Assembly (NCBI GenBank): GCA_002067555.1
Contig: MVQQ01000011.1
Coordinates: 1 to 34,800 of the forward strand
Direction of reading: 5' to 3'
Origin: Syntrophorhabdus sp. PtaB.Bin184
Lineage (GTDB): Bacteria > Desulfobacterota > Syntrophorhabdia > Syntrophorhabdales > Syntrophorhabdaceae
Length of the DNA: 34,800 nucleotides
Numbering within the stretch: position 1 is the stretch's first letter; every line of letters starts with the position of its first letter. This document shows, piece by piece, positions 3,485-34,580 of this stretch. Position numbers and translations under genes: made by a program. The notes beneath the pieces are model-generated. The model was not told the DNA's origin. It did no database searches and saw nothing but the letters and a program-made list of their open reading frames with translations.

Positions 3485-3490
3485 GAAGAC

Positions 3491-3606: not shown

Positions 3607-3631
3607 GCATTCTCTTCTCTTCACAAAACCC

Positions 3632-5623: not shown

Positions 5624-5633
5624 GGAGCCTGCG

Positions 5634-6104: not shown

Positions 6105-6160
6105 AGAGGAGAACCGCCATCAAACGGAAAATTCTATATATCAACGATCTTGTCAAAAAA

Positions 6161-7645: not shown

Positions 7646-7648
7646 GCC

Positions 7649-8233: not shown

Positions 8234-8253
8234 ACAGGGGGTAACACCAAACC

Positions 8254-9249: not shown

Positions 9250-9255
9250 GAGTCC

Positions 9256-11027: not shown

Positions 11028-11049
11028 AATACTTTCCGGGACAATACCA

Positions 11050-12718: not shown

Positions 12719-12761
12719 TTATCGCATCGGTCTGCAAAGGTTTAAAATAAAAGGAGGAGAC

Positions 12762-13427: not shown

Positions 13428-13454
13428 TCTCTGTTCAGACGATGGAGGTGACCT

Positions 13455-14504: not shown

Positions 14505-14543
14505 GATCTTTAAAGGGATGCGTTATCTCAGGCTGGTGATTCA

Positions 14544-15518: not shown

Positions 15519-15566
15519 CAGTCAATAGGTGCGGTTTCACAGGGCACCAAAAAAGGGAATAGCAGA

Positions 15567-16094: not shown

Positions 16095-16173
16095 AAAGCT
16101 GACCCATGCGTGTAATGGCGACCCTTGAGATCAGGGGACGGGAACCAAGAGCTAGAGGACCTGAGAGAAAGAG

Positions 16174-17780: not shown

Positions 17781-17805
17781 GTTCATTACCGTAACGGCGG
17801 AGAAT

Positions 17806-19008: not shown

Positions 19009-19022
19009 AAGGTGTTGACCAC

Positions 19023-19541
19023 ATGAAGATCAAAAGGATCAGTGACGAAGTCATCTATTGCGAGGATCAGATAGTGCTGGTGGACTATGAGGATATTCAG
19101 GGTCTGAAGGGGTCAGCCAGGCACAACGAGAGAAAGCGCGTGCGTATATGTGCCCATCGGGAAGAGACCGACAGACTGCACGAGATGATCATAGTCCACA
19201 CGAGAGACACGTATGTACGCCCTCACCGCCACTTCGGAAAGAGCGAGTCGTTTCTCATTATAGATGGACTGGCAAAGGTTCTTATCTTTAGCGATGATGG
19301 CAGCATCCAGAATGTGATCAATATGGGAGATTACCTGTCGAAGAGGACCTTTTATTATCGTATATGTGAACCCCTCTACCACACCCTTTTGATCGAATCG
19401 GACGTTATCGTTTTTCACGAGAGCACGAATGGACCTTTCAACAGAGGTGATAACGATTTCGCTCCCTGGTCACCCGACGAAAAAGACTCCGCGGCATGCA
19501 GCAACTACTTGAGTAAACTTCACAAACAGATCAGGGCTTGA
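19023..19541 (+). CDS. WbuC-like cupin-fold protein
   Basis: ATG 19023. The pattern RVRICAHREETDRLHEMIIVH...RPHRHFGKSESFLIIDG fits the cupin His/Glu pattern of WbuC-type proteins found in O-antigen loci. Recognition from memory only. Confidence 0.55.
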   Translation: MKIKRISDEVIYCEDQIVLVDYEDIQGLKGSARHNERKRVRICAHREETDRLHEMIIVHTRDTYVRPHRHFGKSESFLIIDGLAKVLIFSDDGSIQNVINMGDYLSKRTFYYRICEPLYHTLLIESDVIVFHESTNGPFNRGDNDFAPWSPDEKDSAACSNYLSKLHKQIRA

Positions 19542-19566
19542 CCACAATGTCACTTTGAGGTGGATA

Positions 19567-20808
19567 ATGGATAAATCTCATTACATTCGAACAACATGCA
19601 GACTATGTGGTGACAGCAACATCAACACCGTTTTGATGCTTGCTCCCACGCCGCCCGGTGATCACTACGTTAAGGTGGACGGTCTGAAAGACAAGCAGGA
19701 GGATTACCCGTTATATCTCATACAATGCGCCAATTGTGGTAATGTTGAACTGCCCGTCGTAGTGAACCCGGAGATTCTCTACGGCAAATACATTTACGAG
19801 ACATCCATTTCTCTGGGACTGGTTGAACATTATCGGACTTACGCTGACGAGATCGTTGCCTTTGCTCAACCACGCCCGGGGTCGTTGGTGATCGATGTGG
19901 GAAGCAACGATGGCACATTACTGAGGGCTTTTCAGGCGAAGGGCTTTCGTGTCCTGGGGGTTGATCCGGCGAAGGACATAGCGGCGAAGGCAACGAATTC
20001 GGGCGTATTTACGATCCCTTCCTTTCTTACCGGAGGTCTGGCACTGGACATCACTAAAGAACACGGTCACGCCTCGCTCGTGACTGCGAACAACGTGATG
20101 GCGAATATAGACGATCTTGACGATTTTGTCACTTCGATCAGAAACCTTCTTGAACCGAATGGACTATTTGTGTTCGAATCAGGGTATCTGGCCGATCTGG
20201 TGAAGCATACGATCATTGATAACATTTACCACGAGCATCTCAGTTACTTCTCCGTGAGACCTCTGATATCCTTTTTTCAACGCAACGGCTTGGAGCTTAT
20301 ACATGTTATTCACAATCCAAGCAAGGGGGGATCGATCAGGGGTATCGTCCAGTTGGAGGGAGGGGGAAGACCCGTTCTGGATTCGGTGGGGCGACTGGTT
20401 GGGTCGGAAAACGAGTCCGGTCTTGGCAGACCCGAGGTGTACAGAGAGCTTTCCGAAAAGGTCAAGAGAGAAAAGCAGGGGTTGCTTGACCTGGTGCGTA
20501 GTTTGCGCGGGGAAGGAAAACGGATCGCTGGTTACGGTGCTTCAGTTGGTGTTACCACGCTCATCCATTTCCTTGAGATCAGCGACCTGATCGATTGTAT
20601 TTTTGACGACAATCCGATTCGAGACGGACTATTCACGCCAGGCCACCATATCCCGGTATTCAGTTCGGATAAGGTGTATGAGAAGCTGCCCGATTACATA
20701 GTCAATTTTGCCTGGAGATACACAGACCCCATACTGCAAAGGCATAAAAAGTACGTAGCCAATGGTGGAAAATTCATTGTTCCCCTGCCGGAAATACGAG
20801 TGATCTAG
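19567..20808 (+). CDS. NDP-hexose C-methyltransferase (TylC3 family), canonical paralog
   Basis: Zn-ribbon CRLCGD...CANCGN, SAM motif I VIDVGSNDGTLL, NIYHEHLSYFS and GGSIRG. The C-terminal domain has GYGASVGVTTL and FDDNPIRDGLFTPGHHIPV. I chose ATG 19567 over the upstream TTG 19555. Confidence 0.8.
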   Translation: MDKSHYIRTTCRLCGDSNINTVLMLAPTPPGDHYVKVDGLKDKQEDYPLYLIQCANCGNVELPVVVNPEILYGKYIYETSISLGLVEHYRTYADEIVAFAQPRPGSLVIDVGSNDGTLLRAFQAKGFRVLGVDPAKDIAAKATNSGVFTIPSFLTGGLALDITKEHGHASLVTANNVMANIDDLDDFVTSIRNLLEPNGLFVFESGYLADLVKHTIIDNIYHEHLSYFSVRPLISFFQRNGLELIHVIHNPSKGGSIRGIVQLEGGGRPVLDSVGRLVGSENESGLGRPEVYRELSEKVKREKQGLLDLVRSLRGEGKRIAGYGASVGVTTLIHFLEISDLIDCIFDDNPIRDGLFTPGHHIPVFSSDKVYEKLPDYIVNFAWRYTDPILQRHKKYVANGGKFIVPLPEIRVI

Positions 20809-20829
20809 AACGCGAGACGGACCAACGAT

Positions 20830-21888
20830 ATGGATCATCCTCTAAAAATCGGTTTTGTTGGGGCAGGCTTCATGGGTCAACTGGCTCACATCGCAAATTA
20901 TGCCGAGTTGAACAAATGTCGCACCGTGGCACTGGCAGAGCTGAGGCCGGGCCTCCGAGAACTGGTTGCACGACGTTATGGTATCGACAAGACCTATGCC
21001 ACCCATGCGGAACTTCTGGCGGATTCTAATGTGGACGCCGTAGTTGCTGTAACACAACGCTTTCTGACAGGTCCAATTGCGCTCGATTGCCTGAGGGCAG
21101 GGAAGCACGTTCTGACTGAGAAGCCCATGGCTTCCACATACGAGCAGGCAACAACACTCGTGGAAACCTCCAGGGAAGCAGGAACGGTGTACGCGGTGGG
21201 TTACATGAAACGGTACGATACCGGTGTTAGAAAGGCCAAGGGCATTCTGGAATCCCTGCTGGTATCAGGCGAGTTGGGACCCGTCAGGTATGTACGCTCC
21301 CATTGTTTTGGAGGAAACGCTTACTGTAACATTGGTGGGCATCTGACTACAGGCGAAGCTTTCGAGTATGAACTGCCTCGCTGGCCCATCGCGCCGGCTT
21401 GGGTTCCGGAGGGTTTGAAGAAGGAATATGAGCGGTTTCTCAACACGTATTGCCACAACATCAACCTGCTCAGGTTTCTGGTCGGCTCAACCCTGAAAGT
21501 CACCTCGGTATCATTTAACGGTCAGGCCGAATGGGTGATCATACTCGACGCCGGGGATTATAACGTTCTCCTGGAAACGGGGAATTACGCGTATCATGGT
21601 TGGGATGAGGTTACGGAGATATATTTCTCCAACGGCAGGCTCCGCATATCCACTCCGCCACCCTTGCTTAGGGGTGTACCCGCTCACATAGAGATATATC
21701 AAAGCGGGCAGGAGCATAACCTGAGCTCCCCGTATTCGGCTTGGTCCTGGTCGTTCAGAAATCAGGCAGAAGCTTTCGTTGATGATATCTGCAACGGCAG
21801 AGGATCAATATCAAGCGGGGAAGACAGCCTTGAAGATATGCGATTGGTGGAGGATATCTGGCGAACGTATCTTACTGGACAACAATAA
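20830..21888 (+). CDS. Gfo/Idh/MocA family oxidoreductase
   Basis: N-terminal Rossmann KIGFVGAGFMGQLAH and the family motif LTEKPMAS. Confidence 0.8.
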   Translation: MDHPLKIGFVGAGFMGQLAHIANYAELNKCRTVALAELRPGLRELVARRYGIDKTYATHAELLADSNVDAVVAVTQRFLTGPIALDCLRAGKHVLTEKPMASTYEQATTLVETSREAGTVYAVGYMKRYDTGVRKAKGILESLLVSGELGPVRYVRSHCFGGNAYCNIGGHLTTGEAFEYELPRWPIAPAWVPEGLKKEYERFLNTYCHNINLLRFLVGSTLKVTSVSFNGQAEWVIILDAGDYNVLLETGNYAYHGWDEVTEIYFSNGRLRISTPPPLLRGVPAHIEIYQSGQEHNLSSPYSAWSWSFRNQAEAFVDDICNGRGSISSGEDSLEDMRLVEDIWRTYLTGQQ

Positions 21889-21911
21889 CCGGATGGAGGA
21901 AGGGGAGTTAG

Positions 21912-23048
21912 ATGAATTCTTCACACGTTGAATTCTATAGGAAGCATAATATATCGCCGGTCAGACAGGACATACAGGATTTGGACAGGCACTTTAGGAA
22001 TAGGGAGTTCCTGTATCGCCAGATGGGAATACTGCCGATGTTCATCACAGGCAAGAGAGTTATCGAGGTTGGGCCTGGGTCGGGGTTTAACTCTCTGTAT
22101 ACCGCCAGTCTGAGGCCCGCCCGGTACGTCCTTATGGAGCCCAACCGCGCAGGGGTCTCGGACATTCGGAACCTTTTTTCGGATTATCCCGACCTCCTCG
22201 AGGTGATCGGGATTGAAGAGTGCATGCTCAGTGATTACAGGGACGATTCCCGGTTCGACTTCGTTTTTTGCGAGGGGGTGCTGTCCGGCGTTCCGGTCCC
22301 GGGAGACTTCTTGAGGCTGCTGTGCGATCTTGTGACCTCACGGGGCCTTCTTGTGATAACGTGCGTTGACGATATATCGTATTTTGCCGAGGCTTTGCGG
22401 CGCTTCTTTGCCCAACTTCTGATCGATCCCGCTTCCAGCCTGGAGGAGAAGACGAATCTGTTACTGCCTATTTTCTTACCACACCTGGCAAATCTGAAAG
22501 GGATGAACCGTCGCCCGGACGACTGGATCATCGACAACCTGATCAACCCTGCGTCAATCGGAAGAATGTTGTCTATTGCTGAGGCGATTGAGGTTGTGGA
22601 GAAGAGCTTTGACATATATGGGTCATCACCTCATTTCATCGTTGATTGGCGGTGGTACAAGGAGATTCTACACAGCGGGCTGAGCATTAATGAGAACGGA
22701 AAGAGCCTTTACTGGCAAAACGTTCACAATTTCCTTGATCACAGCCACGTCTTTCCACAGCGCTCGGAAACGGAGAATCGCAAGCTTCTTTCCCTGTGCA
22801 GATCATCGAGAGATAAGATGCGTGAATTTGAGAATGAGAGGAATCAGGACGTAGTGTCTGAAGTTTGTTCATTGATCGGTGAGGTGATATCTAACGTTTC
22901 TGAGTTTTCGACCGGCCTTGCGGATGCCTTGCGGGAGGCGCTGGACGCGATTGTGGGCCTCAATGTTAAAGGAATGACAGACAGCAGGAGATTCGGCAGG
23001 TTGTTTGGCAGGGGGCAGCAGTATGTCAGTTTTAGCAGGCGAGAATAG
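21912..23048 (+). CDS. Class I SAM-dependent methyltransferase with ~200-aa C-terminal extension
   Basis: Motif I VIEVGPGSGFNSLY and DFVFCEGVL. The long C-terminal region has no motif I recognise. Confidence 0.65.
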   Translation: MNSSHVEFYRKHNISPVRQDIQDLDRHFRNREFLYRQMGILPMFITGKRVIEVGPGSGFNSLYTASLRPARYVLMEPNRAGVSDIRNLFSDYPDLLEVIGIEECMLSDYRDDSRFDFVFCEGVLSGVPVPGDFLRLLCDLVTSRGLLVITCVDDISYFAEALRRFFAQLLIDPASSLEEKTNLLLPIFLPHLANLKGMNRRPDDWIIDNLINPASIGRMLSIAEAIEVVEKSFDIYGSSPHFIVDWRWYKEILHSGLSINENGKSLYWQNVHNFLDHSHVFPQRSETENRKLLSLCRSSRDKMREFENERNQDVVSEVCSLIGEVISNVSEFSTGLADALREALDAIVGLNVKGMTDSRRFGRLFGRGQQYVSFSRRE

Positions 23049-23128
23049 CCGGGACGGATTCGATGCCAGGCGCGCGGAGTATCCCAAGAAAGCGACCGCC
23101 GGCAGTGTCTGCGGGAAAATGTGAGTGA

Positions 23129-23746
23129 TTGCTGAAAATGTTGCTTGATGTTTTATCGTCGATGATCTGGATACAGCTGCAACGCATCGTTCATCTGAAC
23201 TATTACCTCTATCATTATCATTTGCGAGATGCGATTCTTCATAATCCGTGCAGGACGTACCTGGAGGTCGGCTGTGGAGCCGGAGCGGTGTCCAAATTCA
23301 TAGATGATACGTTGCATTACGAAGAGTACCTGGGCGTGGATATTGACGAGAAAAGGATACGCTACGCGGCGGCAAAATATGGCGCAAGAGAAAACACGCA
23401 TTTTCGGTCGGGCGATGTGAGGCAATTGCCAATCGACAAAGACTATGACTGTCTGTTGCTGGTCGGTTTTCTGCACCACGTTCCGAACAATGAGTGCTTG
23501 TCTTTGGTGAGGTATGTCCTGCCCAGGATAACACGTAAGATAGTGATTCTCGAACCCATCTTCGTCTACAGATCCGTGAGAGCGAATCTTTATGAAAGAT
23601 ATCTTGAAAAGGGCGAACACAGGCGAAGTGTCACCCAGGTGAAGGAACTGCTTGATCAGAGCGGTGTTAGGATCGATCTTGAGTATACTTCGCGGCAGGC
23701 GATAGGATTGTTTGATTTCTGGTGCGGGATCTCAGACCTCCGATGA
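23129..23746 (+). CDS. Class I SAM-dependent methyltransferase
   Basis: Motif I YLEVGCGAGAVSKF, GVDID, and DCLLLVGFLHHV. The track start is non-ATG (apparently TTG), with an ATG 9 nt downstream as an alternative. My hand count of the flat-file lines and the ORF track disagreed by 1 nt here. I kept the track coordinates. Confidence 0.7.
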   Translation: MLKMLLDVLSSMIWIQLQRIVHLNYYLYHYHLRDAILHNPCRTYLEVGCGAGAVSKFIDDTLHYEEYLGVDIDEKRIRYAAAKYGARENTHFRSGDVRQLPIDKDYDCLLLVGFLHHVPNNECLSLVRYVLPRITRKIVILEPIFVYRSVRANLYERYLEKGEHRRSVTQVKELLDQSGVRIDLEYTSRQAIGLFDFWCGISDLR

Positions 23747-23789
23747 CTGAGGACAAGATGCTCTGCCAGCTGTTTGCCCGATCGTCTGG

Positions 23790-26582
23790 ATGAGTCGCTT
23801 CTCATCTCCTCGTGTGATCATGAAAAGTGACAAGAAAATATCTTCCTGGGTGCGGGAAGCGCTAGGGGGCTTTGAATCGAATGCCAGTCCTCGCTTGGCG
23901 AACTGCCTTGTGGCCGTATATTTCCTGGCGATCTCGATCTGGGTCTTTTATCCATTTTTCTTCCTGGGTAAGATAATGATCGGCAACACTGACACTCTGG
24001 AGGCAACGTATCCGCTACTGCTATACAATATAAGGAATGCCCATGAGGGATCGCCAAGCTTCTGGAATCCGCATCTGTTCTGCGGGACTCCAAGCTATTC
24101 GTTCTGTCTCATGCAATTGTTCTCGCCGGACAACTGGCCCCTGCTGTTCGTTCCGGAGAAGTACATCTTCAGGGTCCTGACCTTTGTGCAGTTCCTCAAG
24201 TTCTTTGTTTTTGGCCTACTGTCATTCGGTTTTTTCAAACAAGAGATTAATAGCAGAAAGTGGGCGTTATTCGCGGCAACGATGTTTTGTCTTTGCCAGT
24301 ATACCATCTACACAGTGACGGCCACTTTCACGTTCATGATCTCCATTCTGTTCATGGCGAGTGCGTATGTCATATGGAGTTTTCACGGTCGTCCGGCGTA
24401 TCGCAACTATCTGTATTTGTCGCTGATTCTGGGATTCCTTCTCCTCTCGAATCATCTCAGTTGGGCGGGGTTTGCTTTCCTGGTGATCATGGTGTTGTCC
24501 GGATACAGGGTATGGACGCAGGATCAGAGTTCGCGGAAAGGAATGGTGCTTGTCCTTGCACTGAGTGTGCTGACCGCTGTTCTGTTGTCGGCGGTGCGGA
24601 TCCTTCCAAGCTGGCTTGAGCTGAAGGAGGGCATAAGACTGTTGCCGGAAAATGTACGGTACACGGCGTTAATGCCGGAAATGAATGAAGTTTTCTACTT
24701 GCTTTTAAGATTGTTCAACCCGGAGTTGTTTGGAGTGAACTACGTTTCTAGCGTCCCGATCATTTCGAAGCTCTTCCCCGGGGAGCAGCACGCAGGATGG
24801 CATGTCAACAACCTGATGCCCCAGTCCTTCGGTGTTATTGGAGCTATACTTGTAGTCCTAAGTTTCTTCTATTCGGAGAGAAGAAGTCACCGGTTCTGGT
24901 GCGTCTATGTGCTTTTTGCACTGGCACTGATTTCGCATTTGAATCCGTTCAGCGTTCTGACTACCGTTGTCCTGTTTCCTTTGGGACATAGTTTGTCGAT
25001 GCAGATTGCCCTGCCGATCGGGTTTTGCGCGCTGGCCGCTTTGACCGGCAAGAATCTCGAAAAGAGTTTTTCCAAGGGTGCCATAAGGAGTGTGTGGGGA
25101 AGCTATCGTGAAAACGTCTCGATCAGAAGGGTTCTTGTCGTGTTGTACGTTGTTTTCTTGGCGGTATTAAGTGTCAAGATAATCCTTAAGTTTGATACTG
25201 CCGTCAAACTCAAATTCCTTGTAATACCAGTTCTGGCATTTCCCGCTCTTTTTGGCTACTACTGGGCAAAGAATCGACCGGGCGCGTCGAGGTTGGTATT
25301 TGTCATGAGTGTGCTCGGCGTTTTTGTGAACGGTGTCGCGGTCTTCGTGATTGATACCGGGTACCATCTGTACGATCTGTACCTCAGAAATATGTTCGCC
25401 TCTTTCATCTTGCTGCTCCTTTTTCTAGCTTATCTCCAAACACGGATAAACGATGCCGTGGCCCGATACTGGCACCGTCTGAGGCCCTTGGTGGTCCTGT
25501 CAGTGCTGCTGTGTCTTGCTGTGATCCTATTTTCCAACGCCGACGAACTGCGTGAGAACCGCAGGACTATCGACTATGCACTCATCTATCTGGGGTCGTT
25601 GAGGTTCGTGATTGTGGTTCTGATCTTTATGTCCCTTATAGCGATGAAGGGCATGGGCGTCAACGGCAAATGTGTCTTCGCGGTTCTCTTCTTAACGCTT
25701 GTTTTTGACCAGGTTCCGGCCTGGAAGATCCACATCAACCAGAACATCAATCCTTTTTACAAGGGTGCAACTCCTTATCCGGCGATCGATGCTTTGAAGG
25801 TCGAAGGTGGCAGTCAGGTGGATCTGAGAAGCTATCGAGTCAACCATCCCATAACGATCCTGCAGATACCGGCTCTGAAGGAATTGTGGGGCAACAGGGA
25901 AATACTCGCGGATTCCTTTGTAGCCTATGGTGTGCGTTCCTATTCCGGCCTTTACAATGACGTAAGCAAACGCTACAGCAGCTTCGCGGGCCGGTTTGGC
26001 ATAACCGTAAACCCTTTTGGTTTTCCAGCATTGTATGAGAATGATCGTTTTCTGGATCTTGTTGGGGTCAGACTCACTTACGACTCGGGAAGGAAGGTGT
26101 TGCGTGAGAGACCAAACGCTATATCAAGATTCATGTTCTACACGGATTATTCTGTCTACCGTGACGAGAATGAGATTCTGGCGAGACTCACCCATCCGGA
26201 TTTTAGCCCGCAGGACGAAGTCGTTCTTCTCTGTGAGTCGACGAGTGCAGGTCGGGACCATACTCGAGGGGACAAGGGAATGCCGATTACTGAGTTCAAG
26301 GGCAATTCCGATGCGGCTGTCCTGACCGTAAGAACGGACCGGCCGGGGGTATTGCTCTTCAATGACAATTATCACAGGGGTTGGACTGCGCGCGTCAACG
26401 GACAGAAAGGACAATTGCTCAGAGCGAACTATACCTTTATGGGAGTTCAACTGCCGGCCGGAACAAACCTTGTCGAATTCAGGTTTGTTCCGCCTGGGTT
26501 CGCTTTGGGTGCCGTATTGACTTTGCTGGGAATTGCGTTTACACTGATTTTTGCTGTCGTTCTGGGTGGACATCGACGGTAA
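23790..26582 (+). CDS. Large polytopic membrane protein, YfhO-like (putative GT-C fold glycosyltransferase), paralog 1
   Basis: 930 aa with many hydrophobic helices. The first loop is GNTDTLEATYP...GSPSFWNPHLFCGTP. The C-terminal soluble region has NDNYHRGWTARVNGQKGQLLRANYTFMGVQLPAGTNLVEFRFVP followed by a terminal TM helix, as in YfhO-family proteins. Confidence 0.6.
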   Translation: MSRFSSPRVIMKSDKKISSWVREALGGFESNASPRLANCLVAVYFLAISIWVFYPFFFLGKIMIGNTDTLEATYPLLLYNIRNAHEGSPSFWNPHLFCGTPSYSFCLMQLFSPDNWPLLFVPEKYIFRVLTFVQFLKFFVFGLLSFGFFKQEINSRKWALFAATMFCLCQYTIYTVTATFTFMISILFMASAYVIWSFHGRPAYRNYLYLSLILGFLLLSNHLSWAGFAFLVIMVLSGYRVWTQDQSSRKGMVLVLALSVLTAVLLSAVRILPSWLELKEGIRLLPENVRYTALMPEMNEVFYLLLRLFNPELFGVNYVSSVPIISKLFPGEQHAGWHVNNLMPQSFGVIGAILVVLSFFYSERRSHRFWCVYVLFALALISHLNPFSVLTTVVLFPLGHSLSMQIALPIGFCALAALTGKNLEKSFSKGAIRSVWGSYRENVSIRRVLVVLYVVFLAVLSVKIILKFDTAVKLKFLVIPVLAFPALFGYYWAKNRPGASRLVFVMSVLGVFVNGVAVFVIDTGYHLYDLYLRNMFASFILLLLFLAYLQTRINDAVARYWHRLRPLVVLSVLLCLAVILFSNADELRENRRTIDYALIYLGSLRFVIVVLIFMSLIAMKGMGVNGKCVFAVLFLTLVFDQVPAWKIHINQNINPFYKGATPYPAIDALKVEGGSQVDLRSYRVNHPITILQIPALKELWGNREILADSFVAYGVRSYSGLYNDVSKRYSSFAGRFGITVNPFGFPALYENDRFLDLVGVRLTYDSGRKVLRERPNAISRFMFYTDYSVYRDENEILARLTHPDFSPQDEVVLLCESTSAGRDHTRGDKGMPITEFKGNSDAAVLTVRTDRPGVLLFNDNYHRGWTARVNGQKGQLLRANYTFMGVQLPAGTNLVEFRFVPPGFALGAVLTLLGIAFTLIFAVVLGGHRR

Positions 26583-26653
26583 TTCACCGGTTTCCATGAG
26601 AAAGGGCGCGACGGATCGTATTTAAAAGACTCAAGGCGATATTGGGGTATTAT

Positions 26654-27616
26654 ATGAACACCAGCGTTTCGAATGACCCGGAGTATTCAATTATCATTCC
26701 CATCTACAATGAGGAGGAGGTGTTACCCTCATTGCTGCCGGAGATCGTCGAGAGGATGGATGCGCTCGGCAGGGCGTACGAAGTCGTTGTCATTGATGAT
26801 GGGAGCACCGACGGTTCGTGGAACATACTGCAGTCGTTCGCGGCACAGTATGGGAGCCTCGAGGCTTACCGGCTACTGAGGAATTTCGGTCATCAAAAAG
26901 CGTTGTATTCGGGATTGCATGTGGCGAGAGGAAAGGCCATTGGAGTCATGGATGGCGATGGTCAGGATCCTATAGAGGTGCTAATAGAGATGTTTGACCT
27001 CTGGGGCAGGGGCTATGATGTTATCTACGGAGTACGAAGGAAAAGGAAAGAAAACATTCTCAAGAAGTCATCCTACTTCATCTTCTATCGCTTGTATAGA
27101 AGAATGGCAAATATTGATATTGCGTTAGACAGCGGCGACTTCTGCGTAATGGACAGAAAGGTTGTGGATTTCATTGTTGCGCTGCAGGATTCCTCTCCTT
27201 TTATAAGGGGACTGAGGAGTTGGTATGGTGGCAGGCAACTGGGACTCGAATATGATCGTCTTGCCAGGCAGAAAGGCGAGCCGAAATACACCCTGTTCAA
27301 GCTCATCGACCTTGCGATCAATGGCTTAACGTCTTTCTCCAAGGAACCTCTGCGCTGGGCGGTCTACTTCGGCGGAGCAGTTTCCGTGTTTACCTTCATA
27401 TTCCTGGCTGCGATTGTGATAGCGAAGCTCTGCTTCAATTATCCCGAGAGCAGTATCAGCGCGGGTTGGGCTTCCGCGATCTCGTTGACGAGTTTCATAG
27501 GAGGAGTCAATATAATGCTGCTCGGCCTTATAGGCGAGTATATCATGCATATATTTGAATCTGTCAAACACAGACCAGCGTTTCTCATCCAAGAATCCAC
27601 AAGAAAGGACAATTGA
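26654..27616 (+). CDS. GT2 polyprenyl-phosphate glycosyltransferase (GtrB/CsbB/DPM1-like)
   Basis: YSIIIPIYNEEEVL, VVVIDDGSTDGS, the DxD region GVMDGDGQDP, and two C-terminal TM helices (WAVYFGGAVSVFTFIFLAAIVIA and SFIGGVNIMLLGLIGEYI). An alternative TTG start lies at 26642. Confidence 0.8.
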   Translation: MNTSVSNDPEYSIIIPIYNEEEVLPSLLPEIVERMDALGRAYEVVVIDDGSTDGSWNILQSFAAQYGSLEAYRLLRNFGHQKALYSGLHVARGKAIGVMDGDGQDPIEVLIEMFDLWGRGYDVIYGVRRKRKENILKKSSYFIFYRLYRRMANIDIALDSGDFCVMDRKVVDFIVALQDSSPFIRGLRSWYGGRQLGLEYDRLARQKGEPKYTLFKLIDLAINGLTSFSKEPLRWAVYFGGAVSVFTFIFLAAIVIAKLCFNYPESSISAGWASAISLTSFIGGVNIMLLGLIGEYIMHIFESVKHRPAFLIQESTRKDN

Positions 27617-27625
27617 ATTATCGAT

Positions 27626-28363
27626 ATGGATAAGGAAAGATTGATACAATACGACTGGCTGAGCAAGAACCATTGGTGGATCACGAGCAAGTATAAATTA
27701 CTCCGGGACCTGATGACACACAATATCCCGAAGAGCGTGAAGCTTACCCGTATGCTGGATATCGGTTGTGCAACGGGTATCTTTCTTGGCCACATTAAGG
27801 ATACGGTGAAGGATCAATTCGGCATGGACCTGAACCAGGAGATCCTCTATTACATGCAGGACAGCCATGTTCCGGTAGTGGCTAGCAACGCGAAGGCCCT
27901 GCCTTTTAAGAATGAAACGTTCTCATTCATATCGGCAATTGATATTCTCGAACACGTTGATGATGACGTAAAGGTGCTTGAAGAATGTAATCGCGTTCTG
28001 GGTCTCAATGGCTGGCTACTGATATCTGTGCCCGCCTTTAGGGTTCTTTTCGGGAAGCACGACGAATGCTTCGGTCACTACAGAAGGTATTCCAGGCGCG
28101 AAATGGTACAGAAGCTGAGAAGCTCCGGCTTTCGGGTGGAGAAGGCGACGTATGTTCAACCATTCTTCTTTGTCCCCCTGTTGCTGAAGAGGCGCCTTTT
28201 TCCGCCAAAGGACTCCTTGTTCGGCGACTTTGGCAGGCCGAATCCCATTGTCAACAGGATACTTCACAATCTGTTGTCATCGGAGCGGTACTTCGTCAGG
28301 TATTTCAACTTTCCAATAGGAAGTACGCTATTTGTTCTGGCGTCCAAGGGTTCCGACTCCTAA
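27626..28363 (+). CDS. Class I SAM-dependent methyltransferase (Methyltransf_11-like)
   Basis: Motif I MLDIGCATGIFLGH, FSFISAIDILEHV and NGWLLISVP. Confidence 0.75.
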   Translation: MDKERLIQYDWLSKNHWWITSKYKLLRDLMTHNIPKSVKLTRMLDIGCATGIFLGHIKDTVKDQFGMDLNQEILYYMQDSHVPVVASNAKALPFKNETFSFISAIDILEHVDDDVKVLEECNRVLGLNGWLLISVPAFRVLFGKHDECFGHYRRYSRREMVQKLRSSGFRVEKATYVQPFFFVPLLLKRRLFPPKDSLFGDFGRPNPIVNRILHNLLSSERYFVRYFNFPIGSTLFVLASKGSDS

Positions 28364-28412
28364 TCCCAGGTGTTCAAATGCAGATAGCCGATCATTTTAG
28401 TAAGGTACCAAT

Positions 28413-29564
28413 ATGAGTTACTTCAACATATCCGAGAAATTCAGACTGGCGAGAAGCATCATCACAAAGGGATTTCCCCTCTATGTACAGTTCTACATTA
28501 CATCTCGTTGTAACTTGTCCTGCCAGCAGTGCAACATAATCTATTCATACGCCGACATACCGGAGATGAATATCGATCAGATAAGGGCGGTCGCGAGGAA
28601 TCTCCGCCGTATTGGAACATCGATCGTGCTCCTTATAGGAGGGGAACCGTTTGTTCGTAAAGACCTTGCCGATATCATCCGAGTTTTCTCCGAGGCAGGG
28701 ATACACGTTCGAATGCAAACCAACGGTTTTGCCACGCGCAAGCGTCTCCAGGACTGCGTTGACGCGGGCGGCAAGGACATAAGCATATCTCTGGACACTC
28801 TTAAGCCGGAGAAGCAAGACTTGATCAATGGTGGTTTCAACAAATCCTTTATTCGGGCCATGAGAGCGGTCGCGGATGTGAACGATATATTCCCGGAAGA
28901 TGGAACGGCCTTCTTTGGGACCGTCCTGATGCCCCATAATCTGGACGATATTACCAAGGTGATAAAGTTTGCCACAAGGATAGGATGGGGAGTATCGCTT
29001 GTCCCGGTCCATACTTCATCTCAGAATAGACCCATGGGATTCAGGGCCTATGATGATTCGCTCCTCTTCCAGAAATCACAGTACGCAAGGGTAGCGGAAG
29101 TGCTCGAAGAATGCCGACGCTTGAGAAACAATGGGTACTTGCTGTACGATTCGGATGAATACCTTAAGGACATATACAGATTTGTTGTTGGAAAGGAGAT
29201 TGAGTGGCGCAGAAGGAATGGCGGCGTTTGTGACAGTCCCAATCTGTATTTTGCCATAGAACCGGACGGGAGCATTGCGCCATGTTGCGATTTCAGACTC
29301 CAAAGAAGGATCCCGGTCTATGACGACAGGTTTCCCGAATGGTTTGAAGATGGCATTATCCACAAAGAGATCTATGAAATTACCAGCAAATGCCAGGGTT
29401 GTCTTTTTGGCAGTTATCCGGAAATGACGATATCGGCTCGCTATGTAAGGCCACTGGTAGACAGGGCTAAATATTTCCTGAAGGATTACGAGAAACTGAA
29501 AAAGCTGACGATGGAAGAGATCATTCAAATAGCATTTGAAATCGAGAAGGAAGATAAGGTCTGA
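28413..29564 (+). CDS. Radical SAM enzyme with Cys-rich (SPASM/twitch-like) C-terminal region
   Basis: CxxxCxxC cluster motif SRCNLSCQQCN (28509-28532), and GGEPF in LLIGGEPFVRKD. The C-terminal cysteines are GVCDSP...IAPCCDF...KCQGCLFGSYPE. I saw no cobalamin-binding domain. Confidence 0.8.
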   Translation: MSYFNISEKFRLARSIITKGFPLYVQFYITSRCNLSCQQCNIIYSYADIPEMNIDQIRAVARNLRRIGTSIVLLIGGEPFVRKDLADIIRVFSEAGIHVRMQTNGFATRKRLQDCVDAGGKDISISLDTLKPEKQDLINGGFNKSFIRAMRAVADVNDIFPEDGTAFFGTVLMPHNLDDITKVIKFATRIGWGVSLVPVHTSSQNRPMGFRAYDDSLLFQKSQYARVAEVLEECRRLRNNGYLLYDSDEYLKDIYRFVVGKEIEWRRRNGGVCDSPNLYFAIEPDGSIAPCCDFRLQRRIPVYDDRFPEWFEDGIIHKEIYEITSKCQGCLFGSYPEMTISARYVRPLVDRAKYFLKDYEKLKKLTMEEIIQIAFEIEKEDKV

Positions 29565-29570
29565 ATGTAG

Positions 29571-30485
29571 ATGAACCTTTCAAAGGCGTTATTGCACTCG
29601 CTGCTCAGACGAATTGCCGACATCCCTCCGATGAAACTTCATGAGACCTTGAGAAGAGAGATCATGGACAGTCTTCGCGTGGAGAATGACAAGGAAACCT
29701 TCACCGTGACCTGGGTAAACAAGGGAAAGGAGATGTCGAGAAAGTATCCTGTGGGCTATTTTCTTTTCTATGTCAGGGGGGATAGACCGGAAGACGGTCC
29801 GGCAGATAGGACTGTTTACGAAACAAACGACAGGCACCTGGCCGAGATAACGAACGAGATCTGTGACGGCGAAACAAACCTATCGCCCGATACGGACGCG
29901 GAGACACGAAAGAGCGCGAGAATGTTTGAGATACGCTATGTTTGGGCGCTGATCATTTCGGTTGCCTATTTGGTATCCGGTCATGCTTCCCCGCTTGCAC
30001 CCGCGTTCTGCTACCTGGTCTTTTTTGTTCTTTTCGAACAGAGCGTCATTACGTGGATCGTGCCCGCCCTGATTGGTACAATTCTCTTACAGTTTGTTCA
30101 TCTTCATTTCACCTCCTATTTAGGGTTGATCGTGTTGATGCTGGCGGAAATGAAGTCACCGAAAACGCGAATTAGCCATTTCGCGCTCTTGGTGACGGTG
30201 ATGGCTTATTTTGTGGCCGGATTGTTTTGGCAGGACATCGAAGTGGCGCACTTTAGAGAGTTCTGGTGGTTCCTGCCCGTAGGTTTTTTGTTTCCCGTCA
30301 GCACGTTGTTTACCGGTTTGAACCTGCGCGTCAGCACTTATGTTATCCCCCTGGTGGCTGTTGGCATTATTCTGGATGGCTGGCTGCTCTTCGGCATCAT
30401 ACTTCTCCTGATATCAGGTGCAGGGTTGTTCGCTGTGGGTGCCAGGACATACGCACCAGGCGTGTCGAGAGGCGCGAAGAGATAA
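29571..30485 (+). CDS. Hypothetical membrane protein: ~120-aa soluble N-terminal domain plus ~6 predicted TM helices
   Basis: 304-aa ORF starting 7 nt after the radical SAM stop. Hydrophobic segments start from YVWALIISVAYLV. I recognised no family. Confidence 0.55.
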   Translation: MNLSKALLHSLLRRIADIPPMKLHETLRREIMDSLRVENDKETFTVTWVNKGKEMSRKYPVGYFLFYVRGDRPEDGPADRTVYETNDRHLAEITNEICDGETNLSPDTDAETRKSARMFEIRYVWALIISVAYLVSGHASPLAPAFCYLVFFVLFEQSVITWIVPALIGTILLQFVHLHFTSYLGLIVLMLAEMKSPKTRISHFALLVTVMAYFVAGLFWQDIEVAHFREFWWFLPVGFLFPVSTLFTGLNLRVSTYVIPLVAVGIILDGWLLFGIILLLISGAGLFAVGARTYAPGVSRGAKR

Positions 30486-30491
30486 TGTTCA

Positions 30492-31214
30492 ATGGTCAAT
30501 AACAGGATTATATCCGGGATACTGTACAGGCTTAGGGATGTCAGGATCTCGGAAGTGTACCGTGCGATCGACAGGTACTGCAGGGGACGCGTGCTTGATG
30601 TAGGCGGTCGTGACTTTTATATGCGTGTGCGAAACAGGAGACTTGAGATTTCATCATGGACGACGTGCGACATATCCACCGATTACAAGCTGACCATGGA
30701 TGACGGGATATACTCGTTTGTTGTGGGAGACGGATGCTCATTGGAGTATGACAATGAGACCTTTGACACAGTTATCAACATGCAGGTCCTGGAACATGTC
30801 TTTGAACCTATTAGGATGTTCACGGAGATCGCGAGGGTCTTGAAAAAGGGAGGGCATGGGGTATTCCTGATCCCCCAGACTTCGACGCTGCATTACGCGC
30901 CCAACCATTATTACAATTTCACGAGGTTCTGGGTCGAGAAGGCGGCTGAAATGTCGGAGATGGAGGTTATTGAACTGATACCCTTGGGAGGAGCCTGGTC
31001 TACAATGGCTTCCCATCTCTTTTCGTTGGTTTTCCAGGCCATGAATGCCGGGGGGATGAGGGTCAGGGAGTACAGGAGAAATGCGTTCTTTTTCGTGCTG
31101 TTCCCATTTATGCTTTTATATGTCGTTGTGAACATACCGATCCTGCTGTTGTTCAGTCTCGGCGATCTGCAGGAAGGTGCCAACAATCATCTCCTGGTGG
31201 CGAGAAAGCGCTGA
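30492..31214 (+). CDS. Class I SAM-dependent methyltransferase with C-terminal membrane anchor
   Basis: VLDVGGRDFY and FDTVINMQVLEHVFEP...LKKGGHGVFLIP. The C-terminal hydrophobic region has WSTMASHLFSLVF and AFFFVLFPFMLLYVVVNIPILLLFSL. Confidence 0.7.
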   Translation: MVNNRIISGILYRLRDVRISEVYRAIDRYCRGRVLDVGGRDFYMRVRNRRLEISSWTTCDISTDYKLTMDDGIYSFVVGDGCSLEYDNETFDTVINMQVLEHVFEPIRMFTEIARVLKKGGHGVFLIPQTSTLHYAPNHYYNFTRFWVEKAAEMSEMEVIELIPLGGAWSTMASHLFSLVFQAMNAGGMRVREYRRNAFFFVLFPFMLLYVVVNIPILLLFSLGDLQEGANNHLLVARKR

Positions 31215-31243
31215 CCGGGTATCCTCCAGAAAGCAGGTTCGCG

Positions 31244-31894
31244 TTGATAAGAAGGGTGTTGAGTCAAGAAAATCTCCCGAGACTCTGGTATCTCTACCAG
31301 AAGGTTGCCGGTTTCATCTTCGGAGGGAACGGTGCTAAGAAAGACATTGTACGGAATTTGTACGGGGGTGAGACAGAGCTACTGGAGATAGGATGTTCCG
31401 TAGGCCTCATCGCAGAACATTTTCTGAACATCGAGAACGTTCGATATACGGGAATAGATATAGACGGTAAAGCCATCGATGTGGCAAAAGAACGATTTGC
31501 CGGCAAAGACAATTTCCGTTTCTTTTGTGAGTCGATCAGTTCGTTCAAGAACAACAGTGACAGGCTGTTCGATGTTGTAATGATATTCGGGATGTTGCAT
31601 CATGTCGAAGACAGCGTGGCGCAGGAGTTGTTGCCGGATGTCGTGTCACTGCTGAGCGAGAGAGGAAGGGTTGTCATTTACGATCTCTTGGAGCCGGAAG
31701 AGAATGGAAGCCTGCTGGCAAAGATTATCGTCAAACACTTCGAACGAGGCAGGAATCTCAGGAAATCCTCGGATTTCAAGGAATTGATTCAAAAGAGCCT
31801 TCCGCTGGATCTCGTTCACTACAGGGTTATCCCGGTTACTACTTGCCTCGGATATCCCGTGGCGTCGTACTTCGTTGAGGCTGTCTTCACGTAG
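31244..31894 (+). CDS. Class I SAM-dependent methyltransferase
   Basis: Motif I LLEIGCSVGLIAEHF, GIDID, and FDVVMIFGMLHHV. TTG start, with an alternative GTG at 31256. Confidence 0.7.
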   Translation: MIRRVLSQENLPRLWYLYQKVAGFIFGGNGAKKDIVRNLYGGETELLEIGCSVGLIAEHFLNIENVRYTGIDIDGKAIDVAKERFAGKDNFRFFCESISSFKNNSDRLFDVVMIFGMLHHVEDSVAQELLPDVVSLLSERGRVVIYDLLEPEENGSLLAKIIVKHFERGRNLRKSSDFKELIQKSLPLDLVHYRVIPVTTCLGYPVASYFVEAVFT

Positions 31895-31976
31895 CCTTCA
31901 TACATATTCTTGGTCCCCCCACCCGTTTCCACAAGGCATGTACCGGACGCAGTCCGTGGACCGATGGTAGGATAAT

Positions 31977-34580
31977 TTGAAGAAGAGTGGTGAATATCGA
32001 CTCCTCAAAGTGTTGCCTGTGGCAGCGTTCTTTGTGTACATCTTCTATCTGAGCTATTCCTTTCACGATCGAGATCACATGAATCTCGACTATGCTTTCT
32101 TCTATGACAACTTGTGGTACTTCCATGATCGTTTGAAACAAGGTTCATTCGCTCTGTGGAACCCTTTTAACATACTGGGCAAACAGGCAGTGTACGGAAA
32201 TGCCATCAGTGTGTCGATCTTCACCCCTCTGCTTCACTTCATCGGCGTTACGCTGAGCAGTTTTCATTTCATACATATCGCAGGAACGTTCTTGGCTCTG
32301 ACGTCGGTTTATGTCGCAGCCAGAGTGTTGGGTTACGACCGGTATTACTCCTTTCTTCCGATGATCGTGTTGTTGACGGGGGGATACCGCTATTATATCT
32401 CCTATGACCATCTGGCCACCTTCCTATTCCTGTATCCTATAGCCATAGCTGCACTGCTGCGCTTTATGTTGCACGACGATAACATCGTCAAATTAGACAG
32501 GTATCTGGCGGTCTCGCTCCTGTTGTCCTTGGCGTTCCTCGGATTGAGAGTTGAACTCCAGGTATACGCGTATGTTTTCATATTCATAGTCTTTGCCGTT
32601 TACGGACTCTATTCTCCCGTGGGAAGGTTGTCGCAGGGAAAGGCGTGGGTGAAATACGCACTGTTCTGTTCCGGTGTAATAATCACAGTTTTACTGGCAA
32701 ACGTTTTTCAACTCCCTCTGCTTGCGAATTCAATGAGGGAGAACTCCAGGATCTCCGGGGCCATAGGCTACCACATTCTGCTCGACAGAATGTACATTAG
32801 ATACTTGATCGTAAGTGTCATCAATCAGCCTTGTCTCGTTGCCTCGGTGGTGTTCTTCCTCATGTCCAGGAAGATCACTACCGACCGGTTCAGCGGGAGA
32901 ACGGTGTTCGTCGCTTCAATGATAGCCGGTTTGGCCTTCGTGTTGATACTAGCGTACAAGACCTCTATGGGCAGTCTCATGTCTGTCGCTTATAAAAGCA
33001 CAGGGGTCTGTGTGGTTATAGCGATGGTGTCATCTTCAATAAAAAGGAGCCTGAGCCCCGCAGTCGCCTTATTGTATTCAGCGGTGTCGTTCCTGGGTTT
33101 ATATGTGACCGACTATTCCGCTGAGCATTGGATCGTCAATCGCGACGCGCATAATTTCTTCATGAATCCTTTCCTGGCGGGATTCATGGTCCTTGGTTCG
33201 TTGAACCTGTATCTGAAAAGCCGCACCTGGTTGTTGATCGTGCTGGCGGCGTTTCATTTTGTTGGCGAGTCTGTTGTCTTTCTTTCATACTACCTCCTTG
33301 GGATCCCATGGTTGGCGAGCAGAGCGTCAATAATGGAGTTGCCTGTCCAGACAGTCATTATCATGGAGTCTTTCTTGTTCTGCGTGCGGATGGCCGGGAA
33401 TGCTCCCGATTTGTTAATGAATTTCAGAGTGTTCGCCCGCGCGACCAAAGGAAGGTCGGTCGCCGTCCTGTTGTCTATTAAAAGGAACACGGCGAGAATG
33501 GCCGGTTTCGCTTGTATTGTGATGGCGTTTCTCTTGATCAAACCGGTGTTGATACCTTTTGACGGTAACGCGCAGAAATATGTCAAGTGTTTTCCATTTT
33601 CCGAGAACCCGTCCTTTGTTATCAATGAATGGCAGAACGAAGCGGTTAGGGTTTCTCAGGAGATTCGCGGGTCAAGGACGGGGGTGAATCCTCTGAAGCG
33701 GGTCAGGATAGAGGATGACGTCTTGTCATTTGCCGTTGATAGGATGGCCTATCGTTATCTGCCAACATATTCGAAGGTGCTCAATACTGCTCCCATTTGG
33801 ACCTCGGAGTTTCCCGTTTCCTTTATGGAGATCATGAATGCGTCAAGCGCTGTACCGGATAGGATCAAGGGGTTCACTCTTCCTCACGCCGAGCTCAGTC
33901 CGTTGGTCCAGGGTTTCTTCTACAAGTATTGGACTGCGCGCGGAATGAAGGGTAAAGACTTCATGTCACTCAATACTTACCTGGACGACGTATTGATCTT
34001 GCCACACAAGAACGACGACATCGTTCTAAGGGAGATCATGGCAGAGGAAGGCTCACAGACAAACAGAGCCTTCGTCTCAGACAGGGTGGTTGTTCTTGGA
34101 AATCAAAGAGATGAATATGCGTATCTGAAGGACCACCTCGAGGCAGGTGGCAGGCTCCAGGAGTGGATCACAACGTCGGATCACGCATTCCGCGGCGATT
34201 TTGGGGAGGACATTCATAAGAATCTCCCGCTGCGATCAGAGACGATCTTTGAGGAGGATTCTCCCGAAAGGGTCGTAATACGGGCCAAGACCAACAAGGA
34301 GTCATTCCTTGCGCTGATGGACACCTTCAGTTCAGGGTGGAAGGCCCACGTTAATGGGGTTGAGGCCAGAGTGTACAGGGGGTACCTTGGCACGAGATTT
34401 GTTCATCTTCAGCCGGGAACAAGCACCGTTGTCTTCGAATACTCCCTCGCCGGGTTACGAACGTGCATGATAGCGTCTTTGTGTGTTTGGATACTGTTGA
34501 TAATACTAGGGATTGTACGTGTCGTGAGGGGAAGGCTGTCCAGGAGATGCGCCCGGCTTGCCGCAGAAGATGAGACTTGA
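31977..34580 (+). CDS. Large polytopic membrane protein, YfhO-like (putative GT-C fold glycosyltransferase), paralog 2
   Basis: 867 aa with a TTG start after GGTAGGA. Its first loop DYAFFYDNLWYFHDRLKQGSFALWNPFNILGK parallels paralog 1. The C-terminal FSSGWKAHVNGVEARVYRGYLGTRFVHLQPGTSTVVFEYS is followed by a terminal TM helix. Confidence 0.6.
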   Translation: MKKSGEYRLLKVLPVAAFFVYIFYLSYSFHDRDHMNLDYAFFYDNLWYFHDRLKQGSFALWNPFNILGKQAVYGNAISVSIFTPLLHFIGVTLSSFHFIHIAGTFLALTSVYVAARVLGYDRYYSFLPMIVLLTGGYRYYISYDHLATFLFLYPIAIAALLRFMLHDDNIVKLDRYLAVSLLLSLAFLGLRVELQVYAYVFIFIVFAVYGLYSPVGRLSQGKAWVKYALFCSGVIITVLLANVFQLPLLANSMRENSRISGAIGYHILLDRMYIRYLIVSVINQPCLVASVVFFLMSRKITTDRFSGRTVFVASMIAGLAFVLILAYKTSMGSLMSVAYKSTGVCVVIAMVSSSIKRSLSPAVALLYSAVSFLGLYVTDYSAEHWIVNRDAHNFFMNPFLAGFMVLGSLNLYLKSRTWLLIVLAAFHFVGESVVFLSYYLLGIPWLASRASIMELPVQTVIIMESFLFCVRMAGNAPDLLMNFRVFARATKGRSVAVLLSIKRNTARMAGFACIVMAFLLIKPVLIPFDGNAQKYVKCFPFSENPSFVINEWQNEAVRVSQEIRGSRTGVNPLKRVRIEDDVLSFAVDRMAYRYLPTYSKVLNTAPIWTSEFPVSFMEIMNASSAVPDRIKGFTLPHAELSPLVQGFFYKYWTARGMKGKDFMSLNTYLDDVLILPHKNDDIVLREIMAEEGSQTNRAFVSDRVVVLGNQRDEYAYLKDHLEAGGRLQEWITTSDHAFRGDFGEDIHKNLPLRSETIFEEDSPERVVIRAKTNKESFLALMDTFSSGWKAHVNGVEARVYRGYLGTRFVHLQPGTSTVVFEYSLAGLRTCMIASLCVWILLIILGIVRVVRGRLSRRCARLAAEDET

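Follow-up and report, generated by a model that had tools for sequence, protein, structure and literature searches.

A putative lipid-phosphate-sugar glycosylation module with a canonical and a divergent YfhO-superfamily enzyme in a probable Syntrophorhabdus glycan locus

We analyzed a 34,800-nt stretch of DNA from Syntrophorhabdus sp. PtaB.Bin184 (contig MVQQ01000011.1; hereafter, the window), near the downstream end of which a glycosyltransferase family 2 (GT2) enzyme is encoded between two large membrane proteins, here termed A and B. Family and fold assignments, membrane topology, conserved residues and gene linkage identify A as a canonical member, and B as a very divergent relative, of the YfhO family of GT-C glycosyltransferases, and place both, together with a GtrB-type GT2, at the end of a locus rich in sugar-tailoring genes. 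On the strength of sequence, structural models and analogy with characterized systems, we consider it moderately probable that these genes form a lipid-phosphate-sugar glycosylation module similar to CsbB/YfhO or Pgf, and the region most likely represents the membrane-enzyme end of a surface-glycan locus of Syntrophorhabdus that spans ~37 kb on a single strand.

A GtrB-type glycosyltransferase between two large membrane proteins

Examination of the open reading frame (ORF) list and of the six-frame translation of the window places all genes of the locus on the + strand. An initial annotation of this DNA had described A, the GT2, B and the genes between them, all of which we recovered at the stated coordinates. 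The principal features are as follows:

23790..26582, +, gene A, 930-aa YfhO-family GT-C glycosyltransferase (Pfam PF09586)
23988..24086, +, first outward loop of A, with Asp68 (TDTLE) and GSPSFWNPHLFCG (residues 87-99)
26379..26402, +, GWTARVNG in the C-terminal beta domain of A (residues 864-871)
26654..27616, +, GtrB/CsbB/ArnC-type GT2, 320 aa (PDB and NCBIfam matches; the ORF opens with TTG at 26642)
31977..34580, +, gene B, 867-aa divergent YfhO-like GT-C (profile comparison and structural model)
32085..32180, +, first outward loop of B, with Asp38 (LDY), Asp44 and GSFALWNPFNILG (residues 56-68)
34335..34358, +, GWKAHVNG in the C-terminal beta domain of B (residues 787-794)

From A to B the genes lie on the + strand only, with operon-like spacing (gaps <100 nt), and intergenic gaps above 100 nt occur in the window solely at 1475-1972 and 3485-3759. 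Promoter and terminator scans performed no better than shuffled controls, and were not used as evidence; no convincing internal terminators were found. At least 15 contigs, recovered from multiple samples, carry the locus in unaltered form, and copies of the contig in other assemblies, with one mismatch in 12.8 kb, extend the sequence downstream of the window. Two proteins encoded on the contig match OPY03895.1 and OPY03896.1 of Syntrophorhabdus sp. PtaB.Bin184 exactly. Taxonomic labels of the protein clusters disagreed with one another; one of them, Thermotogaceae, stems from a 2.2-kb contig and was discounted in view of these exact matches. Thermodesulfobacteriota, the phylum of Syntrophorhabdus, are diderm bacteria.

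The GT2 aligns with Synechocystis GtrB (PDB 5ekp) over residues 10-314 (E 2.8e-59), a span that includes the DXD region and both C-terminal transmembrane (TM) helices (243-261 and 275-293), and with ArnC in the PDB (E 3.9e-40). Its DXD motif reads DGDGQDP (residues 100-106; DADLQDP in 5ekp). In NCBIfam, PgfS (202.7 bits, equivalog cut-off 500) and ArnC (150.3 bits, cut-off 529) match over the full length of the protein, whereas PgaC (47 bits) matches at the N-terminus only. Given these full-length GtrB/ArnC matches and the purely N-terminal similarity to PgaC, the enzyme is by its sequence, as the initial annotation had supposed, a synthase of the polyprenyl-phosphate sugar type and not a processive synthase. 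All scores fall below the equivalog cut-offs, so that these models do not make it an ortholog of PgfS or ArnC. The same annotation had described this GT2 as the only one, which is correct inside the window but not on the contig, where a second, TM-less GT2 is encoded ~1.4 kb beyond the stop codon of B.

A is a canonical YfhO-family enzyme

The product of gene A passes the threshold of Pfam PF09586 (E 1.1e-15; 57.5 bits, cutoff 28.5), with the best-matching stretch at residues 845-911. Against NCBIfam its C-terminal domain alone matches (PgfM1, 20.9 bits vs 1400; PgfM2, 23.6 bits vs 1500), and a PDB sequence search returned no match. Hydropathy and charge bias yield a topology of ~15 N-terminal TM helices, a ~265-aa extracytoplasmic domain and a terminal TM helix, in which, following the positive-inside rule, both termini are cytoplasmic and the first loop and C-terminal domain lie outside. 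In the YfhO-family alignment of 17 sequences, D68 of the first loop is kept in 14 sequences and W92 in 15, and W865 of the C-terminal module is invariant. An AlphaFold2 (AF2) model built from a 17-sequence alignment reached a predicted TM-score (pTM) of 0.73, and Foldseek searches of the PDB with this model returned GT-C enzymes (AftD, STT3, Emb, PMT, ArnT and ALG9) at every one of the top 30 ranks except rank 19; AftD was the best match (2.9e-4), the E-values being weak and the PDB holding no YfhO structure. Downstream of the closest relative of A, which shares 31% identity with it, lie a GT2 gene and then a gene for a GT-C enzyme of the PMT_2 type.

B belongs to a rare and divergent YfhO-like clade

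The 867-aa form of B starts at a TTG codon, and gene callers choose a later start that yields 856 aa. Its topology, as derived from hydropathy, charge bias and AF2 secondary structure, comprises ~13-14 TM helices, a ~300-aa extracytoplasmic domain and a terminal TM helix. B has no match in Pfam or NCBIfam, even at E<=10, and none in the PDB by sequence. A word-indexed search of 5.8 billion proteins retrieved B itself and one weak YfhO+TPR protein, and its repetition with a profile of the B clade added one further weak hit. The clade was exposed by exhaustive search alone, which yielded 31 relatives at E<=1e-30 among 1.84 billion representatives; full-length relatives share 29-37% identity with B, and many of the weaker hits listed cover the terminal beta domain only.

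Profile comparison relates this clade, aligned here as 21 sequences, to YfhO. The B-clade and YfhO profiles align over 696 columns, near full length (hhalign 99.9%, E 5e-33), and the TM cores still align after removal of the C-terminal domains (97.8%, E 1e-12, 228 columns, B 20-259 vs A 50-284), with D38 of B placed on D68 of A and the WNP motifs in register. Aligning B with the YfhO alignment gave an hhalign probability of 98.3% over B 758-835. Nine of the 21 clade members match PF09586 at E<=0.01 (best 6e-8), but B has no direct match to this model and is hence a relative of the YfhO family rather than a member by the curated model. Within the clade, position 38 is acidic and position 44 is Asp in 20 of 21 sequences each, W61 is likewise kept in 20 of 21, and R52 is also nearly invariant. 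The AF2 model of B (mean predicted local distance difference test, pLDDT, 81.8; pTM 0.87) finds GT-C enzymes at the head of the Foldseek PDB matches, led by STT3 (1.9e-3) and followed by AftD, AglB, PMT and AftA, with a probability of ~1.

Direct comparison of A and B by BLASTP gives a significant match (E 2e-7, 26% identity) solely at the C-terminal end, over ~130 residues; around the WNP motif the E-value is 0.9, and the two proteins are ~14% identical overall. Judged by profile comparison and structural model together, B is a genuine, very divergent GT-C enzyme of the YfhO superfamily, and the level of sequence similarity marks A and B as ancient homologs, not recent paralogs. The initial annotation had presented them as YfhO-like paralogs, and its superfamily assignment stands, for A by Pfam and for B by profile, whereas close paralogy does not; a search with the PF09586 model, which it had proposed, places A above threshold and leaves B without a match. 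The features on which that annotation had relied are nonetheless all present. The G-S-x-x-(F/L)-WNP loop motif occurs as GSPSFWNPHLFCG in A and GSFALWNPFNILG in B and nowhere else in the six-frame translation of the window, and the GW-x-A-x-VNG module and terminal TM helix are found in both proteins. In further checks that it had proposed, both AF2 models resemble GT-C enzymes, and each first extracytoplasmic loop carries conserved acidic residues (D68 in A, D38 and D44 in B).

Related loci and the genes between A and B

With a six-sequence B-clade alignment as query, scans of genomes and metagenomes provided 24 related loci (L numbers), in which YfhO genes were counted by a hidden Markov model (HMM) census. 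Loci with B-clade genes usually carry 2-5 YfhO-like genes, with five in L003, three each in L012 and L015, and two each in L016 and L018. The layout is far more extreme than that of the window in L005, from a Spirochaetia metagenome-assembled genome (MAG; 7112-22689), and in L007, from a Leptospirales MAG (3127-21685), which carry five to seven YfhO genes and one divergently transcribed GtrB-like GT2 (34-35% identity). In L004, from a Nitrospirae MAG, a B relative lies 3 kb from a GtrB-like GT2 (33% identity), in the order GtrB-like GT2, DegT, radical S-adenosylmethionine (SAM) enzyme, GNAT, B, TPR protein, dn175 and dn172, the last two being homologs of small membrane proteins encoded beyond B on the present contig.

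As the initial annotation had noted, the genes between A and B encode three methyltransferases, a radical SAM enzyme and a multi-TM protein:

27626..28363, +, class I SAM methyltransferase (Pfam Methyltransf_11 and Methyltransf_23, E ~5e-15)
28413..29564, +, radical SAM enzyme (Pfam Radical_SAM, 4.9e-24)
29571..30485, +, orphan 304-aa protein with a ~115-aa soluble N-terminal part and ~six TM helices
30492..31214, +, SAM methyltransferase with a hydrophobic C-terminal tail (Pfam Methyltransf_11, 9.4e-12; TM 202-220)
31244..31894, +, class I SAM methyltransferase (Pfam Methyltransf_25 and Methyltransf_12, E ~1e-13)

The radical SAM enzyme contains CX3CX2C and four more Cys, with Cys33/37/40/273/291/327/330 conserved, a pattern consistent with an auxiliary-cluster domain. 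Its PDB relatives include cytosylglucuronate decarboxylase (7vob), and it is probably a sugar-tailoring enzyme. Of 13 loci with B-clade genes, 10 have a homolog nearby, as opposed to 1 of 12 other YfhO loci (Fisher p ~0.001, for a small sample of loci that are not phylogenetically independent), and homologs were located in L003, L004, L011, L012, L014/L015, L016, L019, L020 and L021. In L003 and L004 the radical SAM gene directly follows a DegT aminotransferase gene; a role for the window enzyme as a DesII-like partner of such an aminotransferase was not adopted, because the window has no DegT gene. Literature searches for YfhO with radical SAM enzymes, or with diderm taxa, returned nothing relevant.

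The hydrophobic tail of the methyltransferase at 30492..31214 suggests that this protein is probably membrane-anchored. The orphan 304-aa protein has no Pfam or NCBIfam match at E<=10 and no homolog among the 24 related loci, and is therefore not a conserved component; it forms a single-member cluster at 90% identity, yet is strictly conserved across the copies of the present locus. This absence of family matches and of homologs, and its single-member cluster, also led us not to adopt it as the flippase.

The flipping step and the genes beyond B

The claim of the initial annotation that no GtrA-like gene is present withstood all checks of the window. No match to GtrA (PF04138) was found with Pfam or NCBIfam in the window genes or in the downstream contig (six complete genes and one partial gene), the gaps in the window leave no room for an unannotated GtrA-like gene, and the four small six-frame ORFs with at least three hydrophobic segments all run antisense to the genes, on the minus strand. 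Nor did the called genes of ~40 kb, when scanned with Pfam and NCBIfam, include a Wzx, Wzy, ABC exporter or initiating phosphoglycosyltransferase.

Downstream of B, the contig encodes dn175, dn172, the TM-less GT2 (267 aa), a NUDIX hydrolase, a GDP-mannose-dehydratase-like enzyme, an Acyl_transf_3 protein and, last and in convergent orientation, a 342-aa PF03706 (LPG_synthase_TM) protein. The coordinates of three of these genes are:

L001 12861-13388 and 13428-13946 (window-equivalent ~34870-35955), dn175 and dn172, of 175 and 172 aa, each with three TM helices and a soluble C-terminal domain
L029 18545-19149, -, convergent PF03706 (LPG_synthase_TM / MprF-flippase-domain) gene (partial copy at L001 17872-18399)

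The dn175 and dn172 families are distantly paralogous (hhalign 92%, E 5e-7) and have no family match in Pfam or NCBIfam, GacJ included. The pair follows B-clade genes in five loci, and could serve as a partner of a synthase or constitute a flippase of two different subunits. Members of PF03706 are predicted to flip lipids and often occur in fusion with, or linked to, glycosyltransferases (bioRxiv 10.1101/2022.03.11.483950; PMC12713373); the family is a candidate for the flipping step. A second PF03706 gene (L003 16329-17351) lies beside the radical SAM gene of a Syntrophobacterales locus. The presence downstream of a second GT2, the dn pair and PF03706 means that the premise of one donor serving two transferases may in part be an effect of where the window ends.

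The upstream sugar-supply cluster

3760..23746, +, nucleotide-sugar supply and tailoring cluster (Pfam, NCBIfam; tightly packed genes)

This cluster encodes epimerases/dehydratases, a zinc alcohol dehydrogenase (Zn-ADH), a WbuC cupin, a GFO oxidoreductase and GmhA/HldE/GmhB-like proteins, as well as two TylC3-type C-methyltransferases (17806-19008 and 19555-20808) and four further SAM methyltransferases. Counting the genes between A and B, nine SAM methyltransferases and one radical SAM enzyme fall within ~19 kb (12762-31894), an unusual density that argues for a heavily methylated sugar product. A heptose-type activation set at 3760-11027 comprises a MarR-HTH/HAD phosphatase fusion, a cytidylyltransferase, an SIS isomerase and a fusion of cytidylyltransferase and PfkB kinase in reversed domain order, and is adjoined by a split transketolase (9256-11027), an association that suggests a two-carbon branching or chain-extension step on the sugar.

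Several individual genes of the cluster deserve mention. The 90% cluster of the 221-aa methyltransferase at 12762-13427 includes proteins of the archaeon Candidatus Methanoperedens sp. BLZ2 (WP_097300492.1 and KPQ41965.1), which points to recent cross-domain transfer or to bin contamination. A GSU2086-family protein (4643-5623; NCBIfam, 367 bits) is encoded 27 kb upstream of B; since a 66%-identical homolog lies directly after the dn172 homolog in a B-clade locus (L014 9618-10586, L015 19435-20052), it may have a function in the same system. At 15567-16094 the window encodes a 175-aa membrane protein with a single TM pass that is weakly similar (E 4e-6 to 7e-5) to the products of genes lying between the homologs of B and dn175 in L004 (12737-13312) and L013 (3517-4113), the L004 copy having TPR repeats. 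The TPR protein near the B homolog of L004, together with the YfhO+TPR fusion retrieved with B, hints at protein acceptors.

A proposed mechanism and its alternatives

The genes described above can be arranged in a scheme in which we infer the identity of the donor, the flipping step, the acceptor and the sharing of one donor by both GT-C enzymes. The upstream genes would build one or more nucleotide sugars and tailor them, mainly by methylation, and the methyltransferases encoded between A and B, along with the radical SAM enzyme, would probably complete the sugar or modify it after its attachment to the lipid. The GtrB-type GT2 would then move the sugar onto undecaprenyl phosphate at the cytoplasmic face, and a flippase, either of non-GtrA type or encoded elsewhere, would bring the lipid-linked sugar to the periplasmic face. 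There A and B would transfer it by means of the conserved Asp of their first periplasmic loop, to different acceptors or to successive positions on one acceptor, which may be a protein or an envelope glycan.

The gene order on the contig, A-GT2 followed further on by B-dn175-dn172-GT2 (267 aa), can also be read as two donor-transferase pairs, in which A works with the GtrB-type GT2, and B with dn175/dn172 and the TM-less GT2 as a split synthase like GacI/GacJ of Streptococcus pyogenes. The recurrence of the dn pair after B-family genes in five loci and the distant paralogy of its two members fit this arrangement, as does the TM-less GT2, which best matches ArnC and dolichol-phosphate mannose synthase in their catalytic domains, and there is precedent for a soluble GT-A and a three-helix membrane protein that together make C55-P-GlcNAc (PMC8035078). 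We regard two separate pairs as the main rival reading, but as rather unlikely: beyond the present contig, the TM-less GT2 was seen with a B relative in L017 alone, and it is absent beside the dn pair in L004, L013 and L014/L015, its matches to ArnC are weak (E ~1e-7), and the dn proteins fit no known family, GacJ included.

It is distinctly unlikely that A, B or both are instead polymerizing enzymes, extending a glycan stepwise in the periplasm with lipid-phosphate sugar donors in the manner of mycobacterial Emb/Aft, or transferases that pass oligosaccharides en bloc to proteins. The GT2 that adjoins A is of the monophosphate-carrier type, our scans contain no initiating phosphoglycosyltransferase or Wzx, and the characterized enzymes YfhO, PgfM1 and PgtC2 add single sugars from C55-P-sugar donors (PMC5836110, PMC8035078, bioRxiv 10.1101/2024.05.05.592596). 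AftD, Emb and STT3 do figure among the top structural matches, but GT-C likeness is generic and does not discriminate donor type. What does speak for such activities is that ~40 kb hold no other polymerase or exporter genes, that arrays of 2-7 YfhO genes recall the linkage-specific arabinosyltransferases of mycobacteria, and that Bacteroidota YfhO has been proposed, as a prediction in a preprint, to be the missing O-oligosaccharyltransferase (bioRxiv 10.64898/2026.07.27.740950). B might, finally, be an inactive, degenerate YfhO-like scaffold, an acceptor-binding partner or a transporter, as its failure to match any curated YfhO model and its large clade-specific periplasmic domain (~527-750), with many conserved polar residues, would allow. 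We deem this highly improbable, since a catalytic-loop Asp and WNP that are nearly invariant across the clade are not expected of a pseudo-enzyme, and the GT-C core of B is in register with YfhO.

The CsbB/YfhO- or Pgf-like module remains our preferred reading, and several points weigh against it. None of the curated YfhO models matches B directly, and the Foldseek matches of B have weak E-values (~2e-3 and above) in a PDB without a YfhO structure. A GtrB-like GT2 occurs in 2 of 13 loci with a B relative, most of these contigs being short, and the TM-less GT2 encoded downstream implies that B may not use the product of the GtrB-like enzyme. The oligosaccharyltransferase prediction for Bacteroidota likewise implies that YfhO-type enzymes of diderms might not use monosaccharide donors. 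A more specific proposal, which we offer as speculation and judge unlikely, is that the B clade, the seven-Cys radical SAM enzyme and the dn pair form a distinct module for periplasmic glycosylation that is conserved in anaerobic diderms (Thermodesulfobacteriota and Nitrospirota), in which B would install a sugar tailored by the radical SAM enzyme and the dn pair or PF03706 would replace GtrA or partner a lipid-sugar synthase.

If the preferred reading is correct, extracytoplasmic glycosylation of the YfhO/Pgf style, so far characterized almost only in Firmicutes, would extend to an uncultured syntrophic diderm, and a rare YfhO-like clade would have been missed by current family models. The radical SAM enzyme and the small-membrane-protein pair might then inform on donor tailoring or lipid flipping. 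The three-step logic of lipid charging, flipping and transfer is not overturned, nor is a missing-flippase problem exposed; the practical value of the locus lies in annotation and in a lead for the glycobiology of anaerobes, not in a conceptual surprise.

Comparison with known systems

The closest parallel in gene content is the pgfS-pgfM1-pgfE-pgfM2 operon of Streptococcus mutans, which encodes one GT2 and two YfhO-type GT-C enzymes and no flippase, and in which deletion of pgfM1 abolishes glycosylation and deletion of pgfM2 leaves it partial (PMC5856776; bioRxiv 10.1101/2024.05.05.592596). The window shares with it the combination, within one operon, of a PgfS-type GT2 and two YfhO-type GT-C genes with no flippase gene among them, and PgfS is the best NCBIfam match of the window GT2. 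The window proteins are not orthologs of the Pgf proteins, however, all of them scoring below equivalog cut-offs and B matching no Pgf model, and A and B are ~14% identical, whereas 54% homology is reported for PgfM1 and PgfM2. The host is a diderm anaerobe, the epimerase between the GT-C genes is replaced by three methyltransferases, the radical SAM enzyme and the orphan membrane protein, and no Ser/Thr-rich substrate gene is evident nearby in the window.

In the CsbB/YfhO systems (GtlA/GtlB, Csd) of Firmicutes, which glycosylate teichoic acids and cell-wall polysaccharides, a GT-A polyprenyl-phosphate sugar synthase likewise works with a GT-C enzyme, and the flippase is encoded elsewhere and shared (PMC8035078; PMC5836110; PMC7389260). 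The GtrA-type flippase GtcA of Bacillus subtilis, Staphylococcus aureus and Listeria is encoded away from csbB/yfhO (PMC8035078, Table 1), the flippases GtcA and CflA are unlinked from GT-A/GT-C pairs and one flippase serves several of these (PMC8035078), and a single GT-A, GttA, feeds two GT-C enzymes (PMC8035078). As in these systems, A is a Pfam YfhO member adjoining a GT2. Syntrophorhabdus differs in being a host without teichoic acids, so that the acceptor would be something other than teichoic acid, in a donor that is probably an unusual, heavily methylated sugar and not GlcNAc, Glc or Gal, and in possessing a second, highly divergent GT-C enzyme.

Among diderm systems, the phage and enterobacterial GtrABX glucosylation of O-antigen and the ArnC/ArnE-F/ArnT modification of lipid A follow the same sequence of lipid-phosphate sugar synthesis, flipping and periplasmic GT-C transfer, and the window GT2 shows full-length homology to GtrB and ArnC. 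Unlike these systems, the locus lacks a gene of the GtrA or ArnE/F type, and its GT-C enzymes, two and not one, are of the YfhO type and not GtrX or ArnT (PMT_2). For divergent clades such as that of B, precedent exists in "Component 27" (Durairaj et al., Nature 2023, PMC10584680), a large, poorly annotated YfhO-like clade that stands apart from reference YfhO and resembles STT3/PglB; we liken the two by description, and the median length of Component 27 is 665 aa, compared to ~860 aa in the B clade.

The initial annotation had set one GT2 with two GT-C enzymes and no linked flippase against the established three-component logic, but such arrangements are known from the pgf operon, from unlinked GtcA, from GttA and from YfhO arrays, and the features that it had singled out are thus established variations. 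Its observations are confirmed, its interpretation in part. What is new here is modest: a B clade with few representatives, the conserved linkage of this clade to a radical SAM enzyme and to a pair of small membrane proteins, and the occurrence in a diderm, with the remainder following a known scheme.

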